A stretch of DNA of 40,589 bases, taken from IMG/VR virus record IMGVR_UViG_3300020215_000039. One strand, written 5' to 3'. This DNA comes from a virus. Positions 11,048-30,932 of this stretch are shown here, in pieces; position 1 is the stretch's first letter; each line of letters opens with the position of its first letter. The notes under the pieces were generated by a model, which worked only from the letters and a program-made list of their open reading frames with translations, ran no database searches and was not told where the DNA came from. The position numbers were made by a program, and so were the translations under genes.

Positions 11048-11062
11048 GAAGTTAATCATATC

Positions 11063-11200
11063 ACCAAAACGCCCCGCTACGGCACGTGTGATTCCGACAA
11101 ATTTGGGAATCAGCTCTGTAGCGGGGCTTTCCTTTTGGTAGTAAAGGCTCTCACCGATAGAGCGCTTGCTACCAAAAAACTTTCTCCCTTCAAGGGAGGA
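11063..11200 (+). promoter_or_regulatory. Highly structured leader upstream of scaffold and MCP genes, with mutually exclusive helices
   Basis: accaaaa (11063-69) + gccccgctac (11071-80) pair with gtagcggggc (11118-27) + ttttggt (11133-39). Alternatively ttttggtag (11133-41) pairs with ctaccaaaa (11169-77). A further hairpin ctccc/gggag lies at 11184-11198. Confidence 0.4.
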
Positions 11201-11223
11201 AATATAAAACGGAGGTTTGAAAA

Positions 11224-11952: not shown

Positions 11953-11978
11953 TCTCCACGAACAAGGAGGCCATTTAA

Positions 11979-12889: not shown

Positions 12890-13354
12890 ATGAATAAATT
12901 AAAAGGTTTGTTTATCGCTTCACTGTTAATCATGTCGGCTGGAATCGCGAAAGCGGATCTTATTTCCGGTCAAAGCGGTTGGAACTTCACTCATTTCGCT
13001 GATTCAGGGTCCTTGACCACTGAAGCTGTTGAAATTGGTGCGATCTATATGTCCTCGGGTATCAGCACTCAGGCAGATTACGGCATTCTGTTCTCTACGA
13101 ATGCAACGTCTTCTGTTCTGTTCGGCGCTCTCCCCGCGGCTGGTCGAGTCAGCCCTGCGTTGATCTTCAACTCAACGACTACCCTGACCGGTGACCAATT
13201 GGCTCCCGCAATGGATCGCGTGTGGAACGCAATCGGACCTGATGGAAACGGTATCCGCCTCAACAACGGCGCTTATTGGTTTGCATCGGCCGGTGCATCT
13301 GGTGAAGCTCGCCGCGCTGTTATCAAATGGCGCAGAGGCAAATCAGGTAACTAA
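12890..13354 (+). CDS. Small secreted-type protein co-transcribed with the MCP
   Basis: 154 aa with SD AGGAGG. N-terminus MNKLKGLFIASLLIMSAGIAKA|DL is a textbook Sec signal with an AxA site. Confidence 0.8.
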   Translation: MNKLKGLFIASLLIMSAGIAKADLISGQSGWNFTHFADSGSLTTEAVEIGAIYMSSGISTQADYGILFSTNATSSVLFGALPAAGRVSPALIFNSTTTLTGDQLAPAMDRVWNAIGPDGNGIRLNNGAYWFASAGASGEARRAVIKWRRGKSGN

Positions 13355-13362
13355 TAGTTTAA

Positions 13363-13396
13363 TCGGACGGGGGAGGTTAACGCCTCCCTCGTCTGA
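13363..13396 (+). terminator. Strong 14-bp hairpin after the MCP pair (attenuator or stabiliser; no U-tract)
   Basis: tcggacgggggagg-ttaacg-cctccctcgtctga. Pairing includes two G-U pairs. Followed by tgcttt only. Confidence 0.4.
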
Positions 13397-13412
13397 TGCT
13401 TTAAAAGGAAAC

Positions 13413-13760
13413 ATGAAAGAGTATTTACAATCCTGCGGTTTAGAAGAAGCAAAAGACATGATCGGCTTTATTGAGCAGATCAAGGCTTATAAAGCATACG
13501 TTCTAGCTCGCCGCCGTGCAGAGATTAAAAGAACTCTTGAAGAATGCAAGGAACAAAGAAGTTTAAACCTTCTCTCTTCTAACGGCTGGAACAAAGATAA
13601 GACACTTAAGGCTAAAGCGAAAATCCCGCAATGGATGATTTTTGATGAGGAATACGGCAAGTATTTCGACCCAGAAATCCCGGTTGAGGATAGAGCAAAA
13701 GAAAAAGAAAAGCTACTTAAACGATTGGATAAGGAATATGGAAACTTCAGAGTCTCGTAA
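13413..13760 (+). CDS. Hypothetical protein (115 aa)
   Basis: In-frame ATG of track ORF 13191..13760, with AAGGA upstream. The longer version would overlap 12890..13354 and span the hairpin. Confidence 0.6.
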   Translation: MKEYLQSCGLEEAKDMIGFIEQIKAYKAYVLARRRAEIKRTLEECKEQRSLNLLSSNGWNKDKTLKAKAKIPQWMIFDEEYGKYFDPEIPVEDRAKEKEKLLKRLDKEYGNFRVS

Positions 13761-14874
13761 GCTTTGCATCTACGGCGTGAACGGTTCTAAAAACGGTTGC
13801 GATTTTTATCGCATTCAGCAGCCTTTCTCCCGTCTAGCTGAATCTGAAAAGTTTATGTGTGCATCAAGCTCGCTTCTTAAAGGGTTGGACGATCAAACAC
13901 TCTGGACGGACAAGGCTGATGTCATCGTTTCGCAGATTGGAACGTCGGAAAAATTCTTAGATTACGTGTTCGATAATCAAGGAAAAAAGAAATTTGTCTT
14001 AGATATGGATGACAACCTATTTGCGGTTTCTCCATACAATCCAGCCTATCGCCAGCATGGAATCAGCGAGGTTGAAGTGACGGTAAACGGAGAGAAGGTA
14101 ATGTTGTGGGAAGACGGTAAAAACGGCTTTCAGATTAAAGAAAACAAAGCCCGCCTCTTCCTCTTTCAAGAGATGTTAAAGATCGTTGACCTAGTTACTA
14201 CCCCTTCACCAGTCCTTGCCGGAGTATTTAAAAAGAAAGGCGCAAAAAACGTGAAGGTCATTAAAAACTTCATTGATTTTAAAGTCTGGAAGCCATTAAG
14301 GATCGTAAAAGATGAGTTTGTACGCATTGGTTATCAAGGCGGATGGTCCCATTACGAAGATTGGTGCGAGATTAAAGACGTAATGCTTGAGATCATGCAA
14401 AAGCACAAAAACGTGAAGCTCATCATCATGGGCCAACATTATGAAGGAACATTGAAAGGTATCGAGAAGGAAAGAATCGAAGTTGAACCGTGGATGCCGG
14501 TTGAGATTTATCCATGGAAATGGAAAACACTAAATATCGATATCGGTATTGCGCCTCTTAAACAAACTGAATTTTCAATTTGCAAAAGTGAGCTTAAGTG
14601 GGAAGAGTATGGAGCGCTTAGCATTCCCTGCATCGCCTCTAACATTCCGCCCTACAATCTTGCAATCGAACATGGGAAAACAGGTCTTCTGGCTTCTAGT
14701 CAAGATGAGTGGTTTGATTATTTAGACCAGATGATAACAAGTGCAAACCTGAGAGAGAAGCTTGGACAGCAAGCAATGGAAAAGGTTAAAGCATCGTATG
14801 ACATAGACAAAGAGGTGGAGCAATACGAAAAAGCGTACGCAGCTCTATTTAAACCGGAGGTTTTAGTTGTATGA
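13738..14874 (+). CDS. GT1/GT4-family glycosyltransferase
   Basis: C-terminal EX7E-type motif EEYGALSIPCIASNIPPYNLAIEHGKTGLL. Rossmann-like start KLCIYGVNGS. Start is uncertain (13642/13645 is the alternative). Confidence 0.8.
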   Translation: METSESRKLCIYGVNGSKNGCDFYRIQQPFSRLAESEKFMCASSSLLKGLDDQTLWTDKADVIVSQIGTSEKFLDYVFDNQGKKKFVLDMDDNLFAVSPYNPAYRQHGISEVEVTVNGEKVMLWEDGKNGFQIKENKARLFLFQEMLKIVDLVTTPSPVLAGVFKKKGAKNVKVIKNFIDFKVWKPLRIVKDEFVRIGYQGGWSHYEDWCEIKDVMLEIMQKHKNVKLIIMGQHYEGTLKGIEKERIEVEPWMPVEIYPWKWKTLNIDIGIAPLKQTEFSICKSELKWEEYGALSIPCIASNIPPYNLAIEHGKTGLLASSQDEWFDYLDQMITSANLREKLGQQAMEKVKASYDIDKEVEQYEKAYAALFKPEVLVV

Positions 14875-15149
14875 GTTTATCGGTTCCCACTATTATCAAT
14901 CTTACTCTAACTAACGCCAACACAGAATACTCACAGGCGTTAAAATCGTTTGCTTCACGGTTTTCAATCCAATGCCGCACCGTTGCTGATATCAAATTAT
15001 CTTTTACGTCCGGGCAGAGTGGTGCAACCTATATCACCATTCCTGGCGGGTCAACATTTACCCAGAATGGAATTTTCAGCGGTGTTTTAACACTGTATGT
15101 ACAAAGCCCGTCCGCCGGCGCTGTTGTTGAAATTTTAGAGTGGTCCTAA
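14871..15149 (+). CDS. Small beta-rich virion-module protein (92 aa)
   Basis: ATGA overlap with the glycosyltransferase gene. Confidence 0.75.
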   Translation: MSLSVPTIINLTLTNANTEYSQALKSFASRFSIQCRTVADIKLSFTSGQSGATYITIPGGSTFTQNGIFSGVLTLYVQSPSAGAVVEILEWS

Positions 15150-15160
15150 GGAGGAGTTAA

Positions 15161-15595
15161 ATGGCAAAAGAAACGTATCAAGACGTAATCAAAGCGAAGT
15201 TAAGTTCCCTGATTCAAAACTCCGTCGATATCAAAAATATTTACGAAGACTTTTTGAAAGAAATTGGAACATTGCAGAAACAACGAGATCAAGTTATGGC
15301 CGATACGGAAAAGAGAAAAACTGAATGGGCCAAAACTGTCCAAGAAAAAGAAGCTTATTTAGCTGAGTTTGACAAAAACCTAAAGAAAGAGCGCGAGAAG
15401 ATTGAAAATGATAAGCGCGAAGCAAAGTCGGTTCTGGTTATGGCTCAGGAAGAAAAGATGAAGTATGAGAAGCTTTTAAAAGATGTCACCGCCAAGGAAA
15501 AGAAAGCGGACGAAAAAATTGCTGAAGTCGATCTGTTGAAGAAAATGTATGAATCAAAGATCGAGAAAATCAAGGCACTCACACAGCAGGTGTAA
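15161..15595 (+). CDS. Coiled-coil protein (144 aa)
   Basis: SD AAGGAGG. K/E-rich heptad-like composition. Confidence 0.75.
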   Translation: MAKETYQDVIKAKLSSLIQNSVDIKNIYEDFLKEIGTLQKQRDQVMADTEKRKTEWAKTVQEKEAYLAEFDKNLKKEREKIENDKREAKSVLVMAQEEKMKYEKLLKDVTAKEKKADEKIAEVDLLKKMYESKIEKIKALTQQV

Positions 15596-17019
15596 TGAAG
15601 AAATATTTATTACTTCTTTTACTCCTGCCAGTAGTGATAAAAGCAGAGATGACTATTAACAGACCTTATCCAACATTGCAAGAGCAAGATGGAACTCCGT
15701 CGGTTAGGTATCCGCTGATTAAGGTGCCAAACGGTTCTCTAACGGATGGGACCACATTTGCATCTCTTACATTTGGTGGAGGGTCCGGCGATGCAGTGCT
15801 AGCCGCTACTCAAACGTGGACAGGCCAGAATACTTACTTATCAACAGTAACATATAAGTCATCTGCAACATTTGATAGCAGTGTTAATTTTAGCAGCGGT
15901 GTTCTTACGTTTGGAGATGAAGTAACTCTTAAATCAGCGATTGACGGTAGAGCGATATTCTTTTTTAACAGTTTCGGAACACGATTGTTTTACACGCCTT
16001 TTAACTCAATGGGAATAGGAACTAACTCAATAGATTTTTATATAGGCGCAGCCAAGGTTATGACGTTAGGGGAATCGGGGCATTTAGGATTAGGAACGCC
16101 CAATAATGCGAACTTTAATCAAGGGGCGTTGTTTGACGTCAGAGATGGTTCTGTTTCAATCCATGGCTCAGGCTCAGCACTTGAAGTAGGTTATAAATCA
16201 GGAATCGTTTCAAGCTCAGTCTTTATGGTTGAGCCGGCATCTTTTTCTGTCTATGGCGATGGCAATGTTGGCATTGGATTAAGAGGCAACCCACAAGTAA
16301 AGCTGCACGTTGCGGGAACTGGATTTGATGCAGCGGTTGTTATTCAAAATACTATATCAACTCCGACGGCAATGGTTTTTCTTAACCCTTATCAACAATG
16401 GGATCTTGGAACTGACCCAGAATCTTCAGGAACTGGCGGAAGAAGAAACTTTGAATTTGTAAACGAAAGTGAAGATACGGTTGTGATGGTTCTTTCGACA
16501 GGACCAGGAACCGTGAGCATATTAAATCGCAATCCTACGCCTAATTCAATGTTCCAGGTAGGTGGTGGAACTTTAACAGTATTTAGAAGTGGCTATGTTG
16601 GAATTGGTGAGAGTAATCCTGACAACATCTTTGCAAAATTACACGTTGTTGATTCAAACAATGAGACAGCACTAATTTTGATACAAAACACTATTTCTTC
16701 AGGTGCAGCACAATTTGTTTCTGAGAATGGGAGTATTACTTGGGGTGCAGGTATCGTTGATCCTGATTCGGCTGAAAATGCAAACGCAGTAAATAACTAC
16801 ACAATCAGGAATTTTAGTAACGGAACTAACGATGTAATTATTTCCTCTGCAACTGGCTCTGCGTCATTTATAAGCTCCGTCACTGTAAGATCGGGAAACT
16901 TTTACAACTCTACCGCAGATCAAGGAATCATTTTAAAGAGCGCAAACAGCACTTGTTACAAGGTGACCGTCAGTAACGCCGGAGCATTACAGACAGCATC
17001 TGTCACGTGTCCAAATTAG
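15595..17019 (+). CDS. Tail-fibre-like protein with an N-terminal signal peptide
   Basis: 474 aa, TAATG coupling. N-terminus MKKYLLLLLLLPVVIKA|EM. Repeated G-N-V-G-I-G...NP..KLHV motifs (GNVGIGLRGNPQVKLHV, GYVGIGESNPDNIFAKLHV). Confidence 0.7.
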   Translation: MKKYLLLLLLLPVVIKAEMTINRPYPTLQEQDGTPSVRYPLIKVPNGSLTDGTTFASLTFGGGSGDAVLAATQTWTGQNTYLSTVTYKSSATFDSSVNFSSGVLTFGDEVTLKSAIDGRAIFFFNSFGTRLFYTPFNSMGIGTNSIDFYIGAAKVMTLGESGHLGLGTPNNANFNQGALFDVRDGSVSIHGSGSALEVGYKSGIVSSSVFMVEPASFSVYGDGNVGIGLRGNPQVKLHVAGTGFDAAVVIQNTISTPTAMVFLNPYQQWDLGTDPESSGTGGRRNFEFVNESEDTVVMVLSTGPGTVSILNRNPTPNSMFQVGGGTLTVFRSGYVGIGESNPDNIFAKLHVVDSNNETALILIQNTISSGAAQFVSENGSITWGAGIVDPDSAENANAVNNYTIRNFSNGTNDVIISSATGSASFISSVTVRSGNFYNSTADQGIILKSANSTCYKVTVSNAGALQTASVTCPN

Positions 17020-17023
17020 GAGG

Positions 17024-17431
17024 ATGATTAAAATGAAGAAAGTATTATTAGCGTTATCGTTGGTGTTTTTATCCATCGGATTCATTCAGGCAAGATCCGA
17101 AGGTGGAAGATTTGAAATCTGGCGGAGCACAGAAAACGAGGGACCTATCGATCATGTCCCTGTTGCGACTGGCTCAATATACGTTGCACGTATTGTAGTC
17201 ACGTCTGGAACTACTGGATCAATTTTCCAGTTATACAACTCTTCATCAACTGATCCAGGCGTTGACCGTTCAACATCTGCTGAATATAGTGCAGCAACTG
17301 CAATTGTTTACCCTTTTAATAGGGTTTATGAACGTGGCTTGGCTTGGACTATTGACGGTGGCGCAACGATCGAAATTCATTGGGATTGGATTAATAATGC
17401 ACCAGCGGGACAAGAAAATAGAGGACGCTAA
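17024..17431 (+). CDS. Small secreted-type protein
   Basis: 135 aa. The alternative ATG 17033 is better spaced from AGGAGG. N-terminus MKKVLLALSLVFLSIGFIQA|RS. Confidence 0.75.
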   Translation: MIKMKKVLLALSLVFLSIGFIQARSEGGRFEIWRSTENEGPIDHVPVATGSIYVARIVVTSGTTGSIFQLYNSSSTDPGVDRSTSAEYSAATAIVYPFNRVYERGLAWTIDGGATIEIHWDWINNAPAGQENRGR

Positions 17432-18519
17432 TGTTATTTGGAAAGTTCATAGACGAAACCTGCGATCGGATCAAAAAGGATAAAAAAAATCCCGATGATA
17501 GGGAGTTAGCCGCTCGCAAAATCAATAAAGCCTATAAAGAGATACTTAATAACTCGAGTATCAAATGGCCTTATTTGATCAGGACTGGCGAAATCAGAAC
17601 GGTTGCTAACTACACCACAGGGACCGTATCTATTACGAATGGTTCCCGTACAGTTACTGGAGCAGGAACCGTATGGACTTCAGCTATGGAAGGGCGCTAT
17701 TTCCAGCCCCAAGGCTCTAAAAACTGGTATCGCATACGTCGGGTGGAGAATGCAACATCATTAATCCTTTATAGCGCAATCAAAGAAGATAGCGCCTCCA
17801 GTCAAACCCACATCATCTGGAAGCGCTTTTATTATTTCCCGAGTGAAGTTAGAAAGGTTTTAGAATTCGGTAGCTGGATCCAAAATGGAATCATCGAAGA
17901 AAAATCTCTCTACGCCTTGAGAGATCAAAACAAAGACATTAGTCTTACTGGTGAGCCAGAAGAGTTTTCCATGTTCGGAGCAGATCCATTTGAGTCGTCA
18001 TATTCTGAAGGAACCGTAAGCGTTACGGAAGACAATAATTTATTAACCGGCTCAGGCACATCATGGCTTGATAATGTCGAAGAGGGTGACCGTGTAGAGA
18101 TTGGGACAGACATTTACAGAGTCAAAAGGGTTGAGTCAGACACGAGAATCCGTTTATTAAACTCTGCCAACTCGACTGCATCTGGCGCTTCTTACACGAT
18201 TCATAAAGAAAACAATCTCGGGTTCCAGCTTTGGTTTAACCCGAATGATGTATATATCCTTCCTTATACATATTTAAAGCGAGTCTACGACATGGTGAAT
18301 GAGGAGTATGACCGACCGGAAGTACCGGAAGAGTTTGACGCAGCTATTTTAGATCTCGCTGAAGCCGACAGGCTTGCCGATATGGATGATTCAAAATGGA
18401 TCAACAAACAGGCTTTAGCGACAGCCAGAATCAGCGATTTACGGAGGATGCTAGTGTCTACTCCAAGAAAACGACAATTCAAGCCGTACATCGAAAATAA
18501 CAGGGGGTCATACCTATAA
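17431..18519 (+). CDS. Virion-module protein, function unknown (362 aa)
   Basis: TAATG coupling. Lies in the late block. Confidence 0.75.
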   Translation: MLFGKFIDETCDRIKKDKKNPDDRELAARKINKAYKEILNNSSIKWPYLIRTGEIRTVANYTTGTVSITNGSRTVTGAGTVWTSAMEGRYFQPQGSKNWYRIRRVENATSLILYSAIKEDSASSQTHIIWKRFYYFPSEVRKVLEFGSWIQNGIIEEKSLYALRDQNKDISLTGEPEEFSMFGADPFESSYSEGTVSVTEDNNLLTGSGTSWLDNVEEGDRVEIGTDIYRVKRVESDTRIRLLNSANSTASGASYTIHKENNLGFQLWFNPNDVYILPYTYLKRVYDMVNEEYDRPEVPEEFDAAILDLAEADRLADMDDSKWINKQALATARISDLRRMLVSTPRKRQFKPYIENNRGSYL

Positions 18520-19700
18520 TGGCTCTTACAGTTCAGCAAATTCAACAAGGTTTAGAACCAAATGTATTGGCGCATCAGCTTGGGATCACGTCCCAAGAAC
18601 TGATTGCTTATATCCAAAAAAATAACAAACTCCCAGACGAAGCTGTTAAAGTTATGGGACAATCTACCGTTAATGCACTAAATAATTCATTTAAACGTTT
18701 GAACCAAGGATTTACTGGAAACCCTAATCCTTTGGCAAATCTAGAAGTGCCAGAGGCGCAAAAAAACCCGCAGGCTTATTTAAAGAAGCAAATACAGCTT
18801 CTAGGTGAAGATAATTCAAGACTAACTGCTGATGAGTTAAAGCAAAAAATTGAACTTCTCACATTGCTTAGCAAGGAAACACGTGGAGATTTTACGGGTG
18901 GAACTGTAACTCAAAAAGTTGACCAAAGTGGTGGATATTTAGAACCGTTTAATCTTCAAAATTACCAGATCGTGTCCCCTATCGACACATCATCTGAAAT
19001 TAAATCCATTCAAGACCTTTTAAGTTCAAGAGAGACAAAATTAAAGCGAGAAGGGCAGCTTGAACAATTTCAATCCGGCTTGCAGGACGAGCTTGCAAGA
19101 GGCCGCACTGATTTCATTCGCGGTGAAGAAGATTATGCCAGATATGTTTATGAAAATGAATTAAAACCGCGTATTGAGGAAAACTTAAACGTCCGTGGGC
19201 TTCTTTATAGCGGAGATTTAGCTACAGAGCTTGCTCGTACAGGATCAGGATTGCAAGCAGATATTGAGCAACAGGCTCTTGCATTGCAGCAGGAAGACGA
19301 TGCTTTCTTTCAAGATATTGCCTATCAAAATACCTTCCGCAAAGAAATAGAAGCCGGGAACGACGTTAGCTCCCAGCTCGATTTTGCACGAAATCAAACA
19401 CGCACTAATCAACAGCAGAATTTCCTAAGAACGCAAAATGACTTGAGACGACGTTATCAAGAGCAGTCGTACCAAAAAGACTTGGACCGTCAATTAAGAG
19501 TTCAAGAGGCAAATTTAAAGAGACAGCAGGATTTAGCAAGAAAGAATCAGCAATCAGGCCTGATTAGCAGTATTGGATCTACAGCCGGAATGATTGGTGG
19601 TGCATTAATAGGAGCTAAATTAAGCAATCCGGTTGTTGGTGCTCAAATTGGTAGTCAGCTTGGTGGAACTGCTGGTTTAATGACTGGAGGTAACCAATAA
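18519..19700 (+). CDS. Q-rich virion-module protein with a Gly-rich hydrophobic C-terminus (internal or ejection protein candidate)
   Basis: 393 aa, TAATG coupling. C-terminus GLISSIGSTAGMIGGALIGAKL...GGTAGLMTGG. Confidence 0.7.
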   Translation: MALTVQQIQQGLEPNVLAHQLGITSQELIAYIQKNNKLPDEAVKVMGQSTVNALNNSFKRLNQGFTGNPNPLANLEVPEAQKNPQAYLKKQIQLLGEDNSRLTADELKQKIELLTLLSKETRGDFTGGTVTQKVDQSGGYLEPFNLQNYQIVSPIDTSSEIKSIQDLLSSRETKLKREGQLEQFQSGLQDELARGRTDFIRGEEDYARYVYENELKPRIEENLNVRGLLYSGDLATELARTGSGLQADIEQQALALQQEDDAFFQDIAYQNTFRKEIEAGNDVSSQLDFARNQTRTNQQQNFLRTQNDLRRRYQEQSYQKDLDRQLRVQEANLKRQQDLARKNQQSGLISSIGSTAGMIGGALIGAKLSNPVVGAQIGSQLGGTAGLMTGGNQ

Positions 19701-20362
19701 TGCCTATAAATTTACAGGATGAATTGTTGAGAAAAGAACAGGCGACTGATGCCTATTTAAAAGGGCTGAAAGGATACGAAACAAATCGTCAGAATGTGGC
19801 GAGACAAACACTCGCAGGATCAAGGCAGCCATTTCTTAAAAGTTTAGGTATCGACCAGAGAGCGATTCCACGTATTACTGGAAAGCTCAATTCTGAGGCG
19901 GCCCGCACATTGTCTAGACGATCCCTTGGATCTAATCGTGACCGCCTCAACGTTATGTATCAAACAGCCTTAAAGAGAGCGGAGATGGCCGGAGCAAGCC
20001 AACAGGAGGCTGATGCTTATGCTCGCCAACTAGTCATGGATGAGATGGATCGCTCTTTTCAGGCAGGTGAACAAGCCGCTGATATTGAGTCAAGCAGACG
20101 AAGAGAATTAGTATCGGATGACTACGCAAACCGGGGAATAGCTCTACAAAATCAATATATGCCAGATGTGAATTATGAAGGCGCACTTTATAGGTCGTTA
20201 TTCGGTTTAGCTGGAACAGCTGGGACTGCCTACGCATTAAATAAATCTAAACCAGGAATAAAATCAAATTTTGCTGGTACAGGGAATGTATCGCGATACA
20301 ATGCAATTTACGATGATCCTTTTACAAAAAGCAGTACTTTAAGTTTTGCAGGAGGCAGATAA
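19700..20362 (+). CDS. Virion-module protein (220 aa)
   Basis: TAATG coupling. Confidence 0.75.
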   Translation: MPINLQDELLRKEQATDAYLKGLKGYETNRQNVARQTLAGSRQPFLKSLGIDQRAIPRITGKLNSEAARTLSRRSLGSNRDRLNVMYQTALKRAEMAGASQQEADAYARQLVMDEMDRSFQAGEQAADIESSRRRELVSDDYANRGIALQNQYMPDVNYEGALYRSLFGLAGTAGTAYALNKSKPGIKSNFAGTGNVSRYNAIYDDPFTKSSTLSFAGGR

Positions 20363-21292
20363 ATGAGCGCAACAGACAATATACTCGCAGGGATTGCAGG
20401 GTTTGGAGAAGGGATCAGAGATGTTTTAGTTCCGTACACAATGGAAAATTTAAAAGAGCAGAGAGAAGAAAGGTTGTTGAGGAAAAAAGCCTTGCATGAT
20501 ATTGAAGGCTACAAAATGCTTTTGCCGTACAAGCAAGCGGAGGAAAAATATAAAGCTAATTTAAACTTTGACACTCAAAATAAGTTAAAAGAAGCTGAAT
20601 TTGATAGAGAACAAAACGCTATGGTTGATGTTCTTGATGTAGGAACAGGTAAGAAGCTTGGGACTGCAAAGAGGGGTTCAATTAAAACAGGTGTTGATTT
20701 TGAAGATAAATCATCGCAAGCGGAAAAGGAAATTCTAATAAAAAACCTTACAACTCAATTACCTGATTTGAAGCAAAATGCAATGCGCAATAAGACTAAT
20801 CTTCAGGCAATTAAAAAAGCTAAAGGCTTACTGGAAAAGGGTGTGTCTGGCAAACTTGGACAAGTGAAATCGTTCTTGGCTTCTTACGCTGATTTCGCAG
20901 GCGAAAATGTAGACAGTTTGTCAGAAGCTCAAACTTATCAATTATTAACAAGAGTTATTACAGGACCAATGAGGTTAGAAATTATCGGCCCCGGTCCAGT
21001 GTCTGAGTACGAGCAGAAGCTAATGCAAGCAATTTCCGGCGGCGGAGGAGCGGCGAAAGGGTCTGCGAAAGAATTGCTCAATTTTTATGAAAAGAAAGCG
21101 AAGGACAATGTTTCTAACTACAATTCGACATTGGATGGGGCTAAGAAATTAAGCCCATATTTCGAACAAGTATATTCAAGCGTCGATCTTTCAGACTTGG
21201 AAGAGAAAGATGTAATTGACAATGGTAATCAAGCTCAACCAAAGGAACATTCAAAAAGAAAGCCATTAAGTGCGTTCTGGAGCAAGAGGTAA
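20363..21292 (+). CDS. Virion-module protein (309 aa)
   Basis: Starts 1 nt after the upstream stop. Confidence 0.75.
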   Translation: MSATDNILAGIAGFGEGIRDVLVPYTMENLKEQREERLLRKKALHDIEGYKMLLPYKQAEEKYKANLNFDTQNKLKEAEFDREQNAMVDVLDVGTGKKLGTAKRGSIKTGVDFEDKSSQAEKEILIKNLTTQLPDLKQNAMRNKTNLQAIKKAKGLLEKGVSGKLGQVKSFLASYADFAGENVDSLSEAQTYQLLTRVITGPMRLEIIGPGPVSEYEQKLMQAISGGGGAAKGSAKELLNFYEKKAKDNVSNYNSTLDGAKKLSPYFEQVYSSVDLSDLEEKDVIDNGNQAQPKEHSKRKPLSAFWSKR

Positions 21293-21294
21293 AT

Positions 21295-22809
21295 ATGGCA
21301 TTCGATATTAAGGCCGCGAGATCAGAAGGCTATTCCGATGAGGAAATCGCCTCCTTTTTAGAACAAACTGCCCCTACTTTTAACGTCCGTGCGGCAATGT
21401 CGGAGGGTTATTCATTGGACGACATTTCTGCGGAAATATCGTCTCCCCAAAAGCCGCAAAGCATTGCAGGAAAAACTTTATCTGTTGTAAAAACAGGTAT
21501 TGAAAAACCATTGGGTATACCAATTGCAAATATAGCAAAATCGGCTTACCGAAATATAGTTCAACCATTTGGTGCAGAGGGCGGGATGTCCGAAATGGTT
21601 AAGCCAGGCAATGTTCAAGAAACCTATTATGACTTGATGCCAGAGCAGGAAAGGATGGCCGATACGGTCACTGGCGCAGCATTTGAATCGATCCCGAACC
21701 TGCCAGTCAATTCAACAGCCAAGGAAGCTCTTAAGCTGCCGCTCCTATCTGGAATTTATCCACCAAAACCGTCAGTCATTGCGATGAGTAATCTTCCACA
21801 ACTAATAAAACCACAAGGCTCAATTGCTCCGAAAAATATTACACGCTATGCGACTTCAAAAATAACTGGAATACCAGAAGAGACTATGGTTGCATGGGAA
21901 AAAAATCCGCAATTACTTGAATCTAAAACACTTGAAGCAATTGCGGCAAATCGTATTCCAGAGATATCTAGCAAATTCGAAAACATCAGAACTGGATTGG
22001 CAGCAAAAGCAAAAGAGGCATTATCAACATCTCAATATTTGGAAGAAGGTGCGATTCCAAAGACGAAAATTCTCGATTCAGTCAAAAATGTTAGGAAGGA
22101 TTTGGGTGGTGTCTATACGAGTGAATCTAAGCAGGCAGCAAAAACTTTAAAAAACATAGAAGAGAATTTTAAAAAATTGAGGAATACCGTCAGTCAGAAC
22201 AATCTGCATGAATTGATGCAACAGCTGGATAACGAAATACCGTGGGACAAGGTGTGGAAAAGCCCAGAAACGCTCACGCCTACAGATAATTCCTTGATTG
22301 CTCTACGAACAAGGTTTGATTCTTTCCTAAAAGATTCAAATAAGGAATATAAGCAAATAATGAAGCCCCTGTCAGAGGCTATACAGACAAGAAATGAATT
22401 TTTTAAGAAGTTTAATGTCGAGCGTGTAAAGGAAGTTGGAGAAAAAGGCACAAAGACAGTCTTTATGCCGGGCGACTTTACCGTTTCTCGCCTTAAAAAT
22501 GTAGCTAAGGAATCAAAATTTGGAACAGAGAGGGTTATTCAAAACATTAAGAAGGCGACTGGTGAGGACTTGTCGCCAGAAGTGCAAAATGCCCTATGGC
22601 GACAGGAAATAGAAGAAGCGACAATGAAGGTTCCCTGGACAGATATTAAATTTAACAGCAAAGACATTGCGGAAAAGGTAGTAAATCTGTTGCGTGATAA
22701 AAAACAATCAAAGAAACCATTAAAAGTTATAGAGCCGAGGAATAAACCTCCAACAAAAACATTAACGCCAGACAAAATAATTGACTTACTGCGGGTTGCA
22801 CAATTCTAA
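21295..22809 (+). CDS. Virion-module protein (504 aa) with a duplicated N-terminal EGYS-D-(E/D)I motif
   Basis: Motifs ARSEGYSDEEIASF and AMSEGYSLDDISAE. Confidence 0.75.
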   Translation: MAFDIKAARSEGYSDEEIASFLEQTAPTFNVRAAMSEGYSLDDISAEISSPQKPQSIAGKTLSVVKTGIEKPLGIPIANIAKSAYRNIVQPFGAEGGMSEMVKPGNVQETYYDLMPEQERMADTVTGAAFESIPNLPVNSTAKEALKLPLLSGIYPPKPSVIAMSNLPQLIKPQGSIAPKNITRYATSKITGIPEETMVAWEKNPQLLESKTLEAIAANRIPEISSKFENIRTGLAAKAKEALSTSQYLEEGAIPKTKILDSVKNVRKDLGGVYTSESKQAAKTLKNIEENFKKLRNTVSQNNLHELMQQLDNEIPWDKVWKSPETLTPTDNSLIALRTRFDSFLKDSNKEYKQIMKPLSEAIQTRNEFFKKFNVERVKEVGEKGTKTVFMPGDFTVSRLKNVAKESKFGTERVIQNIKKATGEDLSPEVQNALWRQEIEEATMKVPWTDIKFNSKDIAEKVVNLLRDKKQSKKPLKVIEPRNKPPTKTLTPDKIIDLLRVAQF

Positions 22810-25800
22810 TGAATAAATTGATTCTGGCATCATTGTTTGCGCTCGGTTTGTTTGTTAATGGATACTCTGAACCGCTCCCATCCGGCCAAATCGGATTCGG
22901 TGGAGGGTTAAACCTTCAATCCGACATCACTAACATCAAAGATGAGCAGTCACCAGATATGTGCAACTGTATTGCTAACCTTGACGGGTCTATGGGGAAA
23001 CGTGGTGGAAGTGAAAGGTATATCGATCAGGCCGTTTCATCGCAGCCTTTCACGGCTCTTTACAGGGCCTATGCTTCAACAGGTACGACTGACGTTAAAC
23101 GTTTAATCGGTATCGTTGGCGATAAGATTGTTTACAGTACGGGTGATACGAATCCAGTTTGGATTCAGGCATCGAGCAACACTATTCGCGCCGGTCAAAG
23201 CTGGGATTTTACCACTATGAGCAATCACGTCATCTTCACGGGTGACGGATTAGTCGATCCTATATACAAGTTCAATCTTTTTACATCGTCCCTCTCTACC
23301 TTAACCGATAACGACGTTTCGACAGAAGGTGTGACTTTGAGAGCAAAGTATGTGGAGCAGAAAAGCAATTATCTTCTGTTAATCAATGTCGCAGAGATCA
23401 CAGACGGGACGACTTTCTATCCGAGCAGAATATATTACTCTCTATTGAACTCGCCAAGAGACGCAAGCGTAACCACAAACCTTCCTATATCGAGTTTTTC
23501 ATGGAACCGCTATATTGACGTTAAAACAAATGACGGTGAAGAACTAACCGGCGCTGGCGTTTTAAACGATGAAGTAACGCTTTTTAAACCTTCCTCTATT
23601 CACAGCCTTTCTTATTCCGTTTTAAGCCCAGGGACAGGAGATCAGGCATTAAGAGAGTTAACCAACGGATTCGGTCTCAAAGCGCCTCGCAGTCTGCAAA
23701 ATATAGGCAATTACTACATCATGGCCGCACAAGACGCAATCAGGCTGTATGACGGTGGTCGACGATCACGGCTTACGGTTGGCGAGGAAAACAGGACGAT
23801 ATCGGACGATATCAAACCATTAATCGACAAGCTCATTAAAGCCGGAACCTATCAAAACATCATCGGAAAATATTACAAAAAGAAAGAGTATTACTTGATG
23901 GCGTACGAACACCCAGAGCGGTTCCCAAAAGGTCGCCCGAATTCAGTCATGATCTATGACATCAGAAAAGGGCAGTGGTTCCCTGTTTGCGGATGGCTCG
24001 TTAATTCTTGGGAAACGTTTGACGGCAAGGGCGATAATGGGCAGCTAGTCTATGGCGACTTAGGTATTGTTCATAAAGCAGATTTAGAGGAACAGATTGA
24101 TGATTCTGGCAAATTCTTTGTCATCGATACGATGGATTCTCTTGCTTCATGGAATGGGGTAAGGGTGAATCGCGATACAACAAACATCATCGAAGGCACT
24201 GCATCTTTGAGAATGTGGATTGCGCCAAGTGTATTGGAATCATCAATGAGCCTAAACAGAATGATGATATTAGGTGAGTGGTATGATCGTACAAAAATTA
24301 CCAAAGACGACAAGATTCAATTCAAAATCTATACAACCAGCATTGGAAACATTACAAGCCTACGGGTGGATCTAGAGGTTGACGACGTTACTTCCTTCGA
24401 CACAAATTTCACATCTGTAACGCTCTCTAGTGCGTCACTCAACGCCGCAAACACTACCTGGACCACAGTGGAAATCGCGCTTTCTTCTTTCCCGACGCGG
24501 CCAGATTGGACTGACTTTGACAGTGAGGAAATTCCTTTCGCTAATACGCTTTCATACTACGGGCTGAGATTCGTTTTAAACGGTATCAATATATCCTCTA
24601 TGTCGATTGATGATGTTCGCATCGTTCAAGCGCATGATAGAAACCCTGTTAATTTCTACCGATACACAAAACTATTTGATTTTAGCCGTCCAGAGATCAA
24701 AAAGTTTGGTCAGATTCTTTTGACCTATGAAAAGTCGCCGGATGCTATTTTAAGCATGGACGTATATAACGATTTTGGAAGACAAATAACCACTGAAAAA
24801 TTTGAACGCGAAATACCCCGTGAACTAGTTGTTTTGGGGTTAGTTTCTACCGCAAGCATCGCAATCGTGGATGATGTGGATTACAGTATTATTCAAAGCA
24901 CGATATTTGCTGAATCGAGTTATCTTCCGTTAAACGCCGTGGCAAACAAAGACTTCATTTTCTTTCCAGACAGAACTAATAACCGTTACGTGAAAATGGA
25001 TCGAGCGCCATTTGGTGTAATTTTGACAACTTTTGGCAGTATTGGATCGGGAACTACGAATTTTAATATCGCTCATCAATCAGATATCGATGAAAAGAAC
25101 AACATTTATATCATTGATATCGATAATCAAAGAGTTAAGGTTCATAAACAATCAGATTTAAGCTTTGTAAAGGCCGTCGGTGGCTTATCTAGAGCAAACA
25201 CAGGATATCATCAACCAACAGGTATTACTTGCGATGAAAGTAATTGTTATGTCGCAGACGAAGGGAATTATCGTTGGTTGAAGCTCTCTATAAGCACGCT
25301 TGGAGCAACATTAGTCAAGGATGTTGACTATAACACCATAGGAGATACATCGCTTGATCAGGACGATTCCTATGTTTACGGAGCCTATAACAAAACATCC
25401 GAGGATTCCATTAACCATCAAGACGTTGTATTGGAAAAGCGCAACAAAGGTGACCTTGAACTTGTTAATAGGGTTAGAATTACACCAAAAGATTCTGTTG
25501 CGTTAAGCACATACGCACTTCAGGGGGACATTGCCTTAAGAGGACGATATATTTTCGTCTCTTTCACGGATAATGCCCTTGCAAACAATCCGACATACTA
25601 CATTCAAAAGCGCTTAAAGTCTGATTTTTCTATTGTGAATGAATTTGTTTCTACAACAGAATTATTTTCTGTTATCGGCGATCCGTTTGCCCACAAACCA
25701 ATGATCAAAAGCCAGAAAAAGGATTTAAAAGTGGAAGGACAGTATCTTCAAATTAGGTTTTACGATACTGGACTTGATAATTACTTACGTTTGGTCAATC

Positions 25801-25838
25801 AAACGTACTTAATGAATTTAGAAACACTGAAGTATTAA
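22809..25838 (+). CDS. Large tail protein with signal peptide and C-terminal NHL-type repeats
   Basis: 1009 aa, TAATG coupling. N-terminus MNKLILASLFALGLFVNGYS|EP. NHL-like strings NNIYIIDIDNQRVKVH and NCYVADEGNYRWLKL. Confidence 0.75.
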   Translation: MNKLILASLFALGLFVNGYSEPLPSGQIGFGGGLNLQSDITNIKDEQSPDMCNCIANLDGSMGKRGGSERYIDQAVSSQPFTALYRAYASTGTTDVKRLIGIVGDKIVYSTGDTNPVWIQASSNTIRAGQSWDFTTMSNHVIFTGDGLVDPIYKFNLFTSSLSTLTDNDVSTEGVTLRAKYVEQKSNYLLLINVAEITDGTTFYPSRIYYSLLNSPRDASVTTNLPISSFSWNRYIDVKTNDGEELTGAGVLNDEVTLFKPSSIHSLSYSVLSPGTGDQALRELTNGFGLKAPRSLQNIGNYYIMAAQDAIRLYDGGRRSRLTVGEENRTISDDIKPLIDKLIKAGTYQNIIGKYYKKKEYYLMAYEHPERFPKGRPNSVMIYDIRKGQWFPVCGWLVNSWETFDGKGDNGQLVYGDLGIVHKADLEEQIDDSGKFFVIDTMDSLASWNGVRVNRDTTNIIEGTASLRMWIAPSVLESSMSLNRMMILGEWYDRTKITKDDKIQFKIYTTSIGNITSLRVDLEVDDVTSFDTNFTSVTLSSASLNAANTTWTTVEIALSSFPTRPDWTDFDSEEIPFANTLSYYGLRFVLNGINISSMSIDDVRIVQAHDRNPVNFYRYTKLFDFSRPEIKKFGQILLTYEKSPDAILSMDVYNDFGRQITTEKFEREIPRELVVLGLVSTASIAIVDDVDYSIIQSTIFAESSYLPLNAVANKDFIFFPDRTNNRYVKMDRAPFGVILTTFGSIGSGTTNFNIAHQSDIDEKNNIYIIDIDNQRVKVHKQSDLSFVKAVGGLSRANTGYHQPTGITCDESNCYVADEGNYRWLKLSISTLGATLVKDVDYNTIGDTSLDQDDSYVYGAYNKTSEDSINHQDVVLEKRNKGDLELVNRVRITPKDSVALSTYALQGDIALRGRYIFVSFTDNALANNPTYYIQKRLKSDFSIVNEFVSTTELFSVIGDPFAHKPMIKSQKKDLKVEGQYLQIRFYDTGLDNYLRLVNQTYLMNLETLKY

Positions 25839-25842
25839 ACAT

Positions 25843-25858
25843 TTCTCCCGAGGGAGAA
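25843..25858 (+). terminator. Short hairpin after the 1009-aa gene (weak terminator candidate)
   Basis: ttctccc-ga-gggagaa followed by tatttta. Confidence 0.25.
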
Positions 25859-25881
25859 TATTTTAAAAGGAGAGTGATATT

Positions 25882-27153
25882 GTGAAAAGACTAGTAATAG
25901 CATTAGGACTGCTCTTTGTAGGGAGTAATTTGTATGCAACGCACTTATTCAGAAACAACGCTTCAAATATTAACGCGGGGACCCTCCCAAATGCACGCTT
26001 AGATCCTTCCAGCGTCACTCTTCAGGGAAACAACATTTCTATTTCTACCACATCGCAAGGGTTTTCTCTGTATAAATCAACAGCAGAGCAGTTGTTTGGT
26101 GGATTTGATGTGTTCAGAACGACAGCACAAACTAGAATCAACAACCTTGATTCAAGCACAGCTACGCTTGCAACAGCAATCTCAACAACTGGGGTTGTGT
26201 TCCGTTCAGAATTGAACAACATCGTATCGACAAACATTGTAAATGGAACAATCCAGCTTGCTGATGTGGCCGCTAGTGTATTTATTACTTCCGGTTCCCA
26301 GACGGTTGATCAATTCCACTTAAAAAACACCACAGTAACAGCCGGACAGTACACAAATGCAAATATTTCAATTGATGCCGATGGACGGATTGTTGAAGCT
26401 GCTAATGGTGCGGGAAGCGCTGCTACCAGCACGAGCGCAGCCGTTTATAACTTGGTTGTTACTACAGTGGCGAATAATCGCAATCAAATTGCTGTGACGG
26501 CCGACTCCATCGATATTATGGGTTTTACGGCGGCGCTCTCAACCATCTGCGATATTTCGAAAGTGGGAGCTGGTGGCTTAAATACTGGATCTGAGCAAGC
26601 TGAGACTCGTTATGCTTATTGGGCTATTTCGGATGGAAGCACAAATACAGTCATATTTTCTCTTGATACGGCGGATATAAAGACGGGTCCACCGTTAATG
26701 CCGGCAGGATATACAAAGTGGCGCAAACTTGGCTCAGTTTACAACAAGGGTAATTCCGATATTCGCGCTTTCCATAAGAAAATGCGGAATGTCACACTTT
26801 TAGAGCAAACACCTATCATTAATGACTCTGATGTTCAGGCGACTGAAGTGGTTGTTGATATTAGCTCTACAGTGCCACCAGATGTTTCTCAGGTCTGCTT
26901 TAATATTAACCCTACACAAGCAGATTCTACAGAGCTTGGATTATTTTTCTACCCACAAGGTTATACTTTTTCGGCCAACAACGTGGACGGAGGGCAGCCG
27001 TTTACCTGGTTCTTCAATTTCGCCGTCAATGATCAATTCATTGATTCAAAATGTTTCAACATGGCTAGTACGCGCAATGTGGTTTATCGTCAATATGCTG
27101 CTGTTGGAGCTATGAAGGCCGGAATTTATAACTATGTGGAGGCTTACCCATGA
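25882..27153 (+). CDS. Tail-fibre-like protein with signal peptide
   Basis: 423 aa, GTG start with AAGGAG upstream. N-terminus MKRLVIALGLLFVGSNLYA|TH. Fibre-type motif VTAGQYTNANISIDADGRIVEAANG. Confidence 0.7.
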   Translation: MKRLVIALGLLFVGSNLYATHLFRNNASNINAGTLPNARLDPSSVTLQGNNISISTTSQGFSLYKSTAEQLFGGFDVFRTTAQTRINNLDSSTATLATAISTTGVVFRSELNNIVSTNIVNGTIQLADVAASVFITSGSQTVDQFHLKNTTVTAGQYTNANISIDADGRIVEAANGAGSAATSTSAAVYNLVVTTVANNRNQIAVTADSIDIMGFTAALSTICDISKVGAGGLNTGSEQAETRYAYWAISDGSTNTVIFSLDTADIKTGPPLMPAGYTKWRKLGSVYNKGNSDIRAFHKKMRNVTLLEQTPIINDSDVQATEVVVDISSTVPPDVSQVCFNINPTQADSTELGLFFYPQGYTFSANNVDGGQPFTWFFNFAVNDQFIDSKCFNMASTRNVVYRQYAAVGAMKAGIYNYVEAYP

Positions 27154-27593
27154 AGCGTTACGCACTTGCATTTCTCTTAATTCCTTCAATTTTATGCGCT
27201 GAGGTTGTTGTTTATCACACCGGGACAGGAAAGTTGATCCGTTCTGTTCCCGGCAAGCTCTCTAACTATTCAGCAGAGCAAATTGCAAATCTCAAAGAAA
27301 ATAATGCTGATTATGCTGTGAAAGAGTTTACTGGTGATGAGGTGTTAAGCAGCGATTTGGAATTTAAAAAGATAGAAAATGGCTCGGTGGTTAGCAAATC
27401 TCAGGCCGAGATAGACGAAATTAAAGTTCAAAGGCAAATTACTCTAATCGATTCACGGATCGTAAAGTTAAAGAAGCAAGAGATCGAATATCTCGAAGCA
27501 GCCAAAGAAGGCGTTGATGTTGCAGCTTCAACGGCATCAATCAGGGTAAAGATCGATGCGCTTAAAGCGGAGAAAGCTGCATTACAGGAATAA
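27150..27593 (+). CDS. Signal-peptide plus coiled-coil protein (147 aa)
   Basis: ATGA coupling. N-terminus MKRYALAFLLIPSILCA|EV. Confidence 0.75.
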   Translation: MKRYALAFLLIPSILCAEVVVYHTGTGKLIRSVPGKLSNYSAEQIANLKENNADYAVKEFTGDEVLSSDLEFKKIENGSVVSKSQAEIDEIKVQRQITLIDSRIVKLKKQEIEYLEAAKEGVDVAASTASIRVKIDALKAEKAALQE

Positions 27594-27601: not shown

Positions 27602-27940
27602 ATGGAAGAACTTATATTAAAACTTCTCAAAGAGCCGAACGGATGGATTGTCGTTTTAGGCTACTTAGCTCTTAAATATGGGAATATTTTGGTCAAAAAA
27701 TCCCAAGGTAAGTATGTTAGCTGCAAGGAAACGCAGGAAAAGCTCGACGCTTTGGATAGCAAGGTCAATCTTCATCTAAAGGAATCGGAAATGAACGTTG
27801 TTAAATTGGAAAAGCTCGAATCGTCACAAATTCAAATAAATGCAAACTTAGAAAAGGAAAATGAACGGTTACGTGAATCCATAATAAAAATATTTGACAA
27901 CATGGATAAGCTCAAGGATATTCTGCTGAATAAAAAATAA
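27602..27940 (+). CDS. N-terminal TM plus coiled-coil protein (i-spanin- or holin-like lysis candidate)
   Basis: 112 aa. Hydrophobic segment GWIVVLGYLALKYGNILV followed by a coiled coil. Lies directly upstream of the endolysin. Confidence 0.45.
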   Translation: MEELILKLLKEPNGWIVVLGYLALKYGNILVKKSQGKYVSCKETQEKLDALDSKVNLHLKESEMNVVKLEKLESSQIQINANLEKENERLRESIIKIFDNMDKLKDILLNKK

Positions 27941-28071
27941 TGGCTTTCATTTGTTGCCGGTGTGCTCAAGCAATTATTTGGGGGCAAGAAATGGGAGAAA
28001 AGCAGCTCAATGAGCATGGCGAATCAAGAATCGAATATTACCATGTTCATTGCCCAGAGGATACACAATGA
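27940..28071 (+). CDS. Small zinc-ribbon-like protein (43 aa)
   Basis: TAATG and ATGA overlaps with both neighbours. Motifs CCRC ... HVHC. Confidence 0.4.
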   Translation: MAFICCRCAQAIIWGQEMGEKQLNEHGESRIEYYHVHCPEDTQ

Positions 28072-30736: not shown

Positions 30737-30837
30737 TGTTTTAAGGTTATTTGGATTACTTGCGTTACAACCAATTATTTCGTCAATTTTTGGTATTTTC
30801 CGTCGGAAATGTAGGTTATCGACGGTGAAAAAACTTC

Positions 30838-30883: not shown

Positions 30884-30912
30884 TCGATGAATCGACGGTA
30901 AATGGCCTATTT

Positions 30913-30932
30913 TGCTACCGAAAACTGCTACC
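30913..30932 (+). repeat. Two further TGCTACC repeats (right arm)
   Basis: Copies at 30913-20 and 30926-32, in the same orientation as the left set. The last one abuts the integrase stop. Confidence 0.55.

Follow-up and report, generated by a model that had tools for sequence, protein, structure and literature searches.

Conserved Predicted Export Signals on the Tail Nozzle and Fibres of an Uncultured SU10-Like Podophage

The DNA analysed here is IMG/VR virus record IMGVR_UViG_3300020215_000039, a stretch of 40,589 nucleotides to which we refer as a whole as the window. It is the complete genome of a temperate SU10-like podophage that is known from metagenomes and belongs to a large uncultured clade. 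Six open reading frames (ORFs) in its late region, named here by their start positions (12890, 15595, 17033, 22809, 25882, and 27150), begin with N-termini that have the anatomy of classical cleavable Sec-type signal peptides. Among the six products are the tail nozzle and the sole conserved tail fibre of the genome. The signals are real sequence features with sound starts, and across related genomes they mark the tail parts distal to the adaptor. Export and cleavage of the six proteins are predicted from these features, and below we weigh what they may mean for the assembly of a tailed phage.

RESULTS AND DISCUSSION

Six N-termini with the anatomy of Sec signal peptides

The signal-bearing genes and the other main features of the genome are listed in Table 1. 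Bases 1 to 127 of the window are identical to bases 40463 to 40589, which indicates a circular assembly and a complete genome of 40,462 bp. The same proteins are also encoded on contigs of ~40.6 kb from JGI, ENA, and Logan assemblies.

Table 1. Signal-bearing late genes (first six lines) and other features of the window, with predicted export signals (↓, predicted cleavage site)
Feature	Coordinates	Strand	N-terminal signal	Family match or remark
154-aa small protein, right behind the major capsid gene	12890-13354	+	signal peptide, residues 1-22 (nt 12890-12955), MNKLKGLFIASLLIMSAGIAKA↓DL	
474-aa fibre-like protein	15595-17019	+	signal peptide, residues 1-17 (nt 15595-15645), MKKYLLLLLLLPVVIKA↓EM	
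132-aa small protein, just upstream of the adaptor gene	17033-17431	+	signal peptide, residues 1-20 (nt 17033-17092), MKKVLLALSLVFLSIGFIQA↓RS	
1009-aa tail nozzle	22809-25838	+	signal peptide, residues 1-20 (nt 22809-22868), MNKLILASLFALGLFVNGYS↓EP	
423-aa tail fibre	25882-27153	+	signal peptide, residues 1-19 (nt 25882-25938), MKRLVIALGLLFVGSNLYA↓TH	GTG start
147-aa protein	27150-27593	+	signal peptide, residues 1-17 (nt 27150-27200), MKRYALAFLLIPSILCA↓EV	coiled-coil C-terminal half
Large terminase	5489-6895			
Portal	7686-9797	+		PF23899 SU10_portal
Scaffold-like protein	11224-11952	+		
Major capsid protein	11979-12875	+		PF17236 SU10_MCP
Adaptor	17431-18519	+	none	SU10_adaptor family
Four putative internal (ejection) proteins, 393, 220, 309, and 504 aa	18519-22809	+	none	
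112-aa protein, candidate i-spanin or holin	27602-27940	+		N-terminal membrane helix (~19 residues) and coiled coil
Peptidase-M15-like endolysin	28050-28637	+	none	weak Pfam M15/VanY matches
Small lipoprotein, candidate o-spanin	~30081-30311	+	MTRRFDYLGILILTALIGFMAYFMTGC↓NG (...FMTGC↓NG)	
Holin-like membrane protein	30381-30707	+		
Integrase	30932-31903	-		adjoins tRNA-like fragment
178-aa lipoprotein	32419-32955	-	MRLTLLLFLSQILIGC↓AS	weak CsgG and LpoB-like matches

The first-pass annotation, made from the letters of the window, had called the six N-termini classical cleavable Sec signals and had held that they are not start-codon artefacts. All six are present in the sequence as it quoted them, and both the starts and the anatomy of positive n-region, hydrophobic h-region, and c-region (n-h-c) were verified; the feature is moreover conserved over deep divergence, as described below. 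Each start is supported by a Shine-Dalgarno (SD) sequence or by translational coupling. ORF 12890 starts with ATG 7 nt after AGGAGG, ORF 25882 with GTG 9 nt after AAGGAG, and ORF 27150 with ATG 7 nt after GGAGG and with an ATGA overlap; ORF 15595 overlaps the upstream stop codon as TAATG, and ORF 22809 shows the same TAATG coupling. For the third ORF, two starts had been given, 17024 and 17033. The latter, an ATG 9 nt after AGGAGG, is borne out as the real start, because the AGGAGG abuts the ATG at 17024 without a spacer, and the upstream ATG is probably not used.

The n-regions (MNKLK, MKK, MKK, MNK, MKR, and MKR, in genome order) carry a charge of +1 to +2 and are followed by uncharged hydrophobic runs of 12 to 17 residues, a length below that of typical membrane anchors. 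In each, a helix breaker (P, G, S, or N) stands at position -4 to -6, and positions -3 to -1 (AKA, IKA, IQA, GYS, LYA, and LCA) fit the pattern of small residues at -3 and -1; the residues after the predicted site are mostly acidic or neutral. Neither a twin-arginine motif nor a lipobox was found in any of the six N-termini. We considered ORF 27150 as a lipoprotein, since a Cys lies near its site (SILC-A), and rejected it because the Leu at -1 is not compatible with a lipobox. Two other places in the window do have true lipoboxes (LIGC at 32419 on the minus strand and MTGC at ~30081), and these mark two more predicted exported proteins outside the six, both lipoproteins. Internal starts that could give signal-less isoforms were found only in ORF 15595, where an in-frame ATG without a clear SD sequence lies 2 codons past the predicted cleavage site, and none is conserved.

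To count such N-termini across genomes, we used a crude home-made n-h-c rule rather than a trained predictor, and it picks cleavage sites imprecisely; it missed ORF 12890 owing to the Lys at -2. In this phage together with six relatives, it flagged 39 of the 171 ORFs that reach 90 aa; in seven SU10-like loci of greater distance, the count was 0 of 111 (Fisher P = 5 × 10−10). In T7, 3 of 56 coding sequences were flagged, no structural one among them, and one of the three is the uncleaved i-spanin. Given the crudeness of this detector, and given that gene callers have miscalled some homologue starts, one could suspect chance hydrophobic N-termini or wrong start codons. Against this suspicion stand the good SD sequences or coupling at the starts, the contrast between 0/111 and 39/171, and the preservation of the feature in dozens of diverged homologues. 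We regard an artefact as very improbable, and conservation effectively refutes it.

The 1009-residue protein as a tail nozzle with an added signal

The largest of the six products had been described as an NHL-repeat tail protein. Its fold, modelled with AlphaFold2 (AF2) from 27 homologues (mean pLDDT, 84.5) and searched with Foldseek, identifies it as the tail nozzle. The top seven Foldseek matches in the PDB are podophage nozzles, with a TM-score (normalised to the target) of up to 0.62: those of Pa223 (a Pseudomonas phage; E = 1 × 10−20), VP1 (a Vibrio phage), SU10 (gp17), the cyanophages A4 and Pan3, P22 (gp10), and T7 (gp12). The model consists of a platform with a beta-propeller, middle beta domains, and an NHL propeller in the C-terminal third, and residues 2 to 14 are modelled as a free helix. 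The protein also matches phrog_3287 (virion structural protein) and, weakly, SGBP_B_XBD. No sequence similarity to solved nozzles was detectable outside the NHL domain. On the strength of the model, the protein is a tail nozzle, and it is the sole nozzle candidate in the complete circular genome.

Like the nozzles of T7, P22, SU10, Pa223, VP1, and A4, the window nozzle has a core of a platform and a seven-bladed beta-propeller, and its gene lies downstream of the adaptor gene. The two genes are directly adjacent in distant relatives (L005, L023, and L024), whereas in the window the four putative ejection genes lie between them. T7 gp12 has the same N-terminal GG motif as the window nozzle (MALISQSIKNLKGGIS...). 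The window nozzle differs in having the signal and the extra NHL propeller; nozzles with readable N-termini, namely T7 gp12, the 558-aa protein of L005, and two distant homologues (P0166 and P0169), have no hydrophobic N-terminus.

A word-indexed search and a full scan with HMMER, covering 1.84 billion representative proteins, gave ~55 nozzle homologues; in the HMMER profile scan, NHL-repeat proteins dominated after ~40 true homologues. All 49 N-terminally complete homologues carry a signal peptide, down to ~38% identity. The check for conserved hydrophobic N-termini that the first-pass annotation had called for thus came out positive for the nozzle, and the fibre and both small families described below keep theirs as well. 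The median signal length is 19 residues, the n-region has a net charge of +1 to +4 in 46 of the 49, and the uncharged hydrophobic run measures 10 to 18 residues in 47. At -1 we found A (29), S (12), G (6), or C (2), a tally that is inflated because the sites were picked by our own rule. The signal sequences themselves can barely be aligned; the physicochemical pattern alone is kept. The few shorter nozzle N-termini end in ...LLSA↓EP or ...LLFA↓QP, the tail of a signal peptide, which suggests that their starts were miscalled.

Past the predicted cleavage site, the nozzles share the motif FGGGLN...D...S.D, the counterpart of KGGISQQPD near the start of T7 gp12, and in the 49 proteins cleavage is mostly predicted 9 to 11 residues ahead of FGGGLN. 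The four signal-less nozzles named above start ~11 to 14 residues before the same GG motif. The three distant ones among them (P0166, P0169, and the L005 protein) are ~560 to 680 aa long and lack the NHL domain, and their N-termini, like that of T7 gp12, are hydrophilic and net positive. The nozzle signal thus appears as an N-terminal add-on, the predicted removal of which would restore the N-terminus of signal-less nozzles. The flanking sequence differs in charge: the first 18 residues of the four signal-less nozzles carry a net charge of +1 or +2, and the first 18 mature residues of the signal-bearing nozzles carry -0.4 on average, with a value of 0 or less in 38 of 49. Sec export in E. coli tolerates basic residues early in the mature chain poorly. 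The low early charge fits this intolerance, and the sequence next to the nozzle signal looks adapted to translocation.

A different reading of these N-termini is that they stay uncleaved, either as tethers to the cytoplasmic face of the inner membrane or as membrane-inserting pins that are kept in the virion. A short signal anchor and a cleaved signal are indistinguishable by sequence alone, our detector also flags the uncleaved T7 i-spanin, and the AF2 model shows the nozzle N-terminus as a free helix. Some phages, T4 for example, begin head assembly at the inner membrane. However, the hydrophobic runs fall below typical anchor length; the helix breaker and the small-x-small site are conserved (Ala at -1 in 29 of 49 nozzles), which would be pointless on an anchor; the depletion of positive charge after the site fits translocation; and the free drift of the signals, with the pattern alone kept, is how signal peptides behave, not structural elements. 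We therefore consider uncleaved N-termini rather unlikely. The geometry of a retained signal is also relevant here. In T7 gp12, residues 1 to 45 contribute strands to the platform domain, which contacts the adaptor (PMC6702177). By analogy with this geometry, a retained hydrophobic extension of 20 residues would sit near the adaptor interface and might interfere with it.

As a separate observation, short-range Cys pairs recur in the nozzles (the product of 22809-25838 and its homologues; P0001-P0053), and the position of the partner shifts between subclades. The window nozzle (P0001) has CxC at 52/54 and C-x4-C at 808/813, and homologues have C-x8-C and C-x11-C. These pairs could form disulfide loops, although the cysteine totals of the nozzles, given below, are not biased toward even numbers.

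Fibres and small signal-bearing proteins

The claim that virion-module proteins carry the signals, fibres included, is upheld by the nozzle fold and by the 423-aa fibre. In the fibre, the predicted mature N-terminus coincides with the beginning of a conserved block. The block, THLFRNNASNINxGxLxxxRLDPSSVTLQGN, begins 0 to 2 residues past the predicted site and is the best-conserved part of the protein in five relatives (L017, L018, L019, L020, and L022). The fibre matches phrog_10485 and is the sole conserved fibre of the genome. In SU10, N-terminal residues of the short fibre are described as clamping the nozzle dock (PMC9509320). A conserved block at the predicted +1 position is what would be expected if the new N-terminus were the docking end.

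The 474-aa fibre-like protein has a much narrower distribution. The only homologues found were near-identical proteins with the same signal peptide (P0037 and P0038), and BLASTP detected the gene in none of the relatives. With P0039, a signal-bearing beta-helix protein, it has a C-terminal C-x20-C module in common.

The 154-aa and 132-aa proteins belong to two clade-wide families. Nearly all sequences returned for the 154-aa protein were near-identical, and its homologues in L001, L017, L020, and L022 all keep the signal (the L001 site reads AYA↓DILSG); searches against Pfam, PHROG, NCBIfam, and PDB gave no match. The 132-aa protein has homologues with a signal peptide in L001, L017, L020, L021, and L022, and an ORF at 2410 of the more distant L023, which aligns to the family at 19% identity, is signal bearing too. 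An AF2 model of the 132-aa protein from two sequences had a pLDDT of 35.8 and was discarded. The two families aligned to each other with an hhalign probability of 86.6% over 70 columns that include the signal peptide, and pairwise BLASTP was not significant; paralogy is thus only suggested by the profile comparison. For fibres and small proteins together, sequence searches of Pfam, PHROG, NCBIfam, and PDB gave no useful function.

ORF 27150 borders the lysis cassette, with the fibre gene on one side and the lysis genes on the other. Small signal-bearing proteins occupy the same position in L017 (14415), L019 (14321), and L022 (14238 and 19362), and their likeness to ORF 27150 is visible by eye only, below the BLASTP threshold. 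Considered as an i-spanin, the product has a coiled-coil C-terminal half, but its hydrophobic run measures only 12 to 14 residues and is followed by the LCA↓E site. It may be a fibre accessory or lysis-associated protein and perhaps not a virion protein.

Distribution of the signals in related genomes

We examined five related contigs (L017, L019, L020, L021, and L022; GC content, 37 to 53%), one of which came from a 0.1-µm groundwater fraction. Each has 5 to 10 signal-bearing ORFs in its late region. The nozzle, the conserved fibre, further fibres, both small families, and the small ORF after the fibre carry the signal; the portal, scaffold, capsid, adaptor, and four or five ejection-type proteins do not. 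The boundary thus falls between the adaptor and all parts distal to it, and the signal-bearing set is syntenic and conserved across the clade.

The window shows the same division. Its portal, scaffold-like, and major capsid proteins have no signal peptide, and its head module (7686-12875) includes matches to phrog_1328 and phrog_1216. The adaptor family aligned with adaptors that match PF24175 (SU10_adaptor) at an hhalign probability of 99.9% (E = 9 × 10−35), and adaptor N-termini are hydrophilic throughout the relatives. The four proteins encoded after the adaptor are rich in coiled coil, with Gly-rich, hydrophobic C-termini; from position and composition they are putative ejection proteins, and their homologues in the relatives likewise lack a signal.

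In L023, a nozzle without a signal is encoded alongside signal-bearing fibre-like and small proteins. Tail components would therefore not always share one compartment, and an all-or-none co-occurrence of signals on interacting tail parts, which we had considered, is rejected. Fibre signals appear to be more widespread than the nozzle signal, and they may also be older. The signal-bearing L023 genes (2410-5736 and 7063-7569) encode a small protein, 678-aa and 185-aa fibre-like proteins, and a 168-aa protein; they lie between portal and capsid, in a gene order unlike that of the window, and a tail-collar-like motif is visible by eye in the 185-aa protein.

Secreted or lipoprotein morons, such as Lom and Bor of lambda and Llp of T5, occur among late and tail genes, in a genomic setting like that of the window. 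One may ask whether the signal-bearing genes are likewise secreted accessory genes that are merely located in the late operon, with the true tail encoded elsewhere. The idea could hold for ORF 15595, which is absent from the relatives; ORF 27150 borders the lysis cassette, and the two small families have no known fold or function. The known morons, however, are accessory, non-structural, and sporadic, whereas the signals described here sit on the nozzle and the conserved fibre and are found clade-wide. There is no second nozzle candidate or conserved fibre in the genome, the other late genes encode the adaptor and ejection proteins, the signal-bearing set is syntenic, and a promoter and terminator scan found no more sites than expected by chance. 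Unrelated secreted genes are thus an improbable explanation of the set, and the 178-aa lipoprotein on the minus strand is probably a gene of the moron kind.

A possible route of export and assembly

The reading that we prefer is that, in this clade, all tail components distal to the adaptor are made as Sec preproteins whose signal is cleavable and of the signal peptidase I type and that the head, adaptor, and ejection proteins are cytoplasmic. We hold it tentatively, at a little under an even chance. The nozzle (presumably a hexamer), the fibres, and the two small families would be targeted to SecYEG, probably co-translationally given their very hydrophobic h-regions. After translocation and cleavage by signal peptidase, they would fold and form oligomers in the periplasm; the host would be one with two membranes. 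Speculatively, DNA-filled, adaptor-capped heads would not encounter these tail parts until the holin breaches the inner membrane at lysis, and the virion would be finished at that point. Assembly in two such compartments, with heads made in the cytoplasm, exported tail parts pre-assembled in the periplasm, and the two joined at the breach of the inner membrane, is possible but doubtful.

Because this complete genome encodes a single nozzle and a single conserved fibre, both with the signal, virions most likely contain the exported forms. Export of such tail-protein folds is feasible, as an analogue discussed below illustrates. The first-pass annotation had offered several mechanisms without choosing among them; the data speak for genuine export of the distal tail rather than for uncleaved anchors or unrelated secreted factors, short of proof.

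Several points weigh against this interpretation. Export, cleavage, and periplasmic joining are all deduced from sequence, the envelope and Sec biology of the host are assumed, and full-text literature searches found no precedent for the completion of a tailed virion outside the cytoplasm. The nozzle of L023 lacks a signal. A bias toward even numbers of cysteines was absent in 48 nozzles (20 even, 28 odd) and thus gives no sign of adaptation to periplasmic disulfides, which were given up as a motive for export. Joining of heads and tails within the seconds of lysis, or later, could be inefficient. In P22, the plug proteins gp4, gp10, and gp26 are needed to keep DNA in the head. The T7 nozzle is described as the main element retaining DNA (PMC6702177). 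If nozzles retain the DNA, heads that await a periplasmic nozzle would need another stopper.

The problem of DNA retention in heads without a nozzle is avoided if the signal-bearing proteins have a dual fate. Some molecules would be exported and act on the envelope (in receptor masking or destruction, glycan depolymerisation, or superinfection exclusion), and virions would be assembled in the cytoplasm from molecules that escape export, because Sec is saturated or because the membrane potential falls late in infection. Some carriers do resemble enzymes or glycan binders: the nozzle combines its weak SGBP_B_XBD match with an NHL propeller, the gene after the nozzle in L025 has a weak Phage_depo_C match, and the distant relative P0039 has beta-helix and NosD domains. 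The pairing of a signal-less nozzle with signal-bearing fibres in L023 also fits. Yet the cytoplasmic copies would keep a hydrophobic N-terminus of 17 to 22 residues near the nozzle-adaptor interface or at the docking end of the fibre, a signal in 49 of 49 nozzles is hard to explain by a side function of an essential structural protein, and no internal start for a signal-less isoform is conserved. We judge a dual fate to be on the unlikely side.

Relation to known systems

The first-pass annotation had called a run of exported structural-module proteins unexpected and had known of no precedent, and nothing comparable turned up in the full-text literature, where we found no export signals on podophage nozzle or tail proteins. 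Complete virions of tailed phages are generally held to assemble in the cytoplasm and not to reach the envelope before lysis. As a possible precedent, the "N-terminal signal peptides" of PVC cargo were set aside, because they concern the delivery of cargo by contractile injection systems and not virion tail proteins.

Among the closest known systems are SU10/Kuravirus-type phages: the capsid, portal, and adaptor of the window fall in SU10 families, and the adaptor-nozzle-fibre plan is shared with SU10, in whose structural paper a search found no mention of export signals on tail proteins (PMC9509320). These phages are nevertheless very distant from the window phage, which is temperate, has a 40-kb genome, and carries an integrase and a tRNA-like attachment site (attP).

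The nearest functional analogue is the mosaic adhesive trimer (MAT) family of Bdellovibrio, tail-fibre-like trimers that have a signal peptide and are displayed outside the cytoplasm (PMC10769870). In a MAT fibre, the signal peptide precedes an N-terminal domain that is conserved and a tip that varies, and the fibre works in the way proposed here for the fibres of the window. The MAT genes differ in being chromosomal genes of a predator, used in prey recognition and not as virion parts, and the likeness drawn here is one of layout and function.

Envelope-linked assembly is known from the membrane-containing phages PRD1 and PM2. In the Inoviridae, Sec/YidC or insertion into the membrane is the route taken by virion proteins, and assembly is likewise tied to the envelope (PMC4823517). 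The architecture of all these phages is unrelated to that of the window phage, which has the large terminase, portal, and SU10-family capsid of a tailed-phage head. A membrane-containing phage would instead have a double-jelly-roll capsid and an internal membrane and would lack a portal and terminase of the tailed-phage type, and no sign of a viral membrane was seen.

What is known, then, is the structural families (the SU10-type head and adaptor and the podophage nozzle), and what is new is the conserved, apparently functional export signals on core tail proteins. This minimal reading is already new and directly testable. Should export be real, obligate Sec substrates among the nozzle and fibres of a large environmental clade would break the rule of cytoplasmic assembly, and with two-compartment assembly the phage would be the first among tailed phages to finish its infectious particle outside the cytoplasm. 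Such a clade would offer a natural system for head-tail joining across a membrane or after its rupture and would pose the problem of how, lacking a nozzle, a podophage head keeps its DNA in. It would also show that periplasmic chaperones can fold receptor-binding machinery, a point of use in the production of engineered fibres, and a path by which phage fibres evolved into cell-surface fibre adhesins of the Bdellovibrio MAT kind would suggest itself. The feature is real, conserved, and unexplained, and there is a substantial chance that it reveals a new assembly route.

Lysis genes and lipoproteins

Downstream of ORF 27150, the 112-aa product of ORF 27602 is, from its membrane helix and coiled coil, the better i-spanin candidate of the two. 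The endolysin gene follows, and a small lipoprotein that may serve as o-spanin is encoded 2.1 kb from ORF 27602 and 2.5 kb from ORF 27150; equivalent lipoproteins follow the endolysin in L017 (20484-20822) and L019 (15851-16165). An endolysin without an export signal, together with a lipoprotein and a helix/coiled-coil protein, points to holin-dependent lysis of a two-membrane host, in which a holin, endolysin, and spanins would take part. The 178-aa lipoprotein lies in the lysogeny region, between the integrase gene and a repressor-like helix-turn-helix (HTH) gene, and may be a prophage-expressed envelope or exclusion factor.

Lysogeny, relatives, and other genes

The integrase gene stands next to a tRNA-like fragment (30837-30907, minus strand), from which we conclude that the phage is temperate. 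The fragment scored 25.3 bits against the Rfam tRNA model (E = 0.0035), under the gathering score, and ARAGORN called no tRNA in the window, this fragment included. Its 3' half is well formed, the anticodon loop CTGTCAA reads as Asp(GTC) by eye, and a CCA end is not encoded. The fragment probably provides the attP core (47 nt, 30837-30883) through which the phage would integrate into a tRNA-Asp gene of its host.

Among deposited phage genomes, neither megablast (with 24 kb) nor tblastn with the nozzle gave a match. The only matches of the portal in a phage collection were the portals of two uncultured phages, at 22% identity. A genome scan, in which the only find was a distant relative in a probably mis-binned archaeal genome, the NCBI matches (metagenome contigs), and searches with the integrase gave no host; the integrase matches, at ~27% identity, were to unrelated phages and plasmids. 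One distant SU10-like contig (L011; PSPX01000020.1), with a capsid 33% identical, is filed in a "Methanobacteriota archaeon" metagenome-assembled genome from Guaymas, most likely as a binning artefact.

The mechanical ORF list contains a 189-aa ORF with a GTG start (13191-13760, plus strand), which shares its first part with the last part of 12890-13354. On identical contigs, gene callers give a 100-aa product in its place that corresponds to 13458-13760 of the window, and the earlier gene map may need correction here. In the close relative L001, an added HNH-type endonuclease-like ORF (5206-5796) lies between the scaffold and capsid genes, and the window is without it. Two further genes of the window are conserved in L001: a glycosyltransferase gene of the GT1/GT4 family within the structural block (13642-14874, plus strand) and an S-adenosylmethionine (SAM)-methyltransferase-like gene with a weak spermine-synthase match between the portal and scaffold genes (10308-10829, plus strand). 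Their products might modify virion proteins or host glycans.

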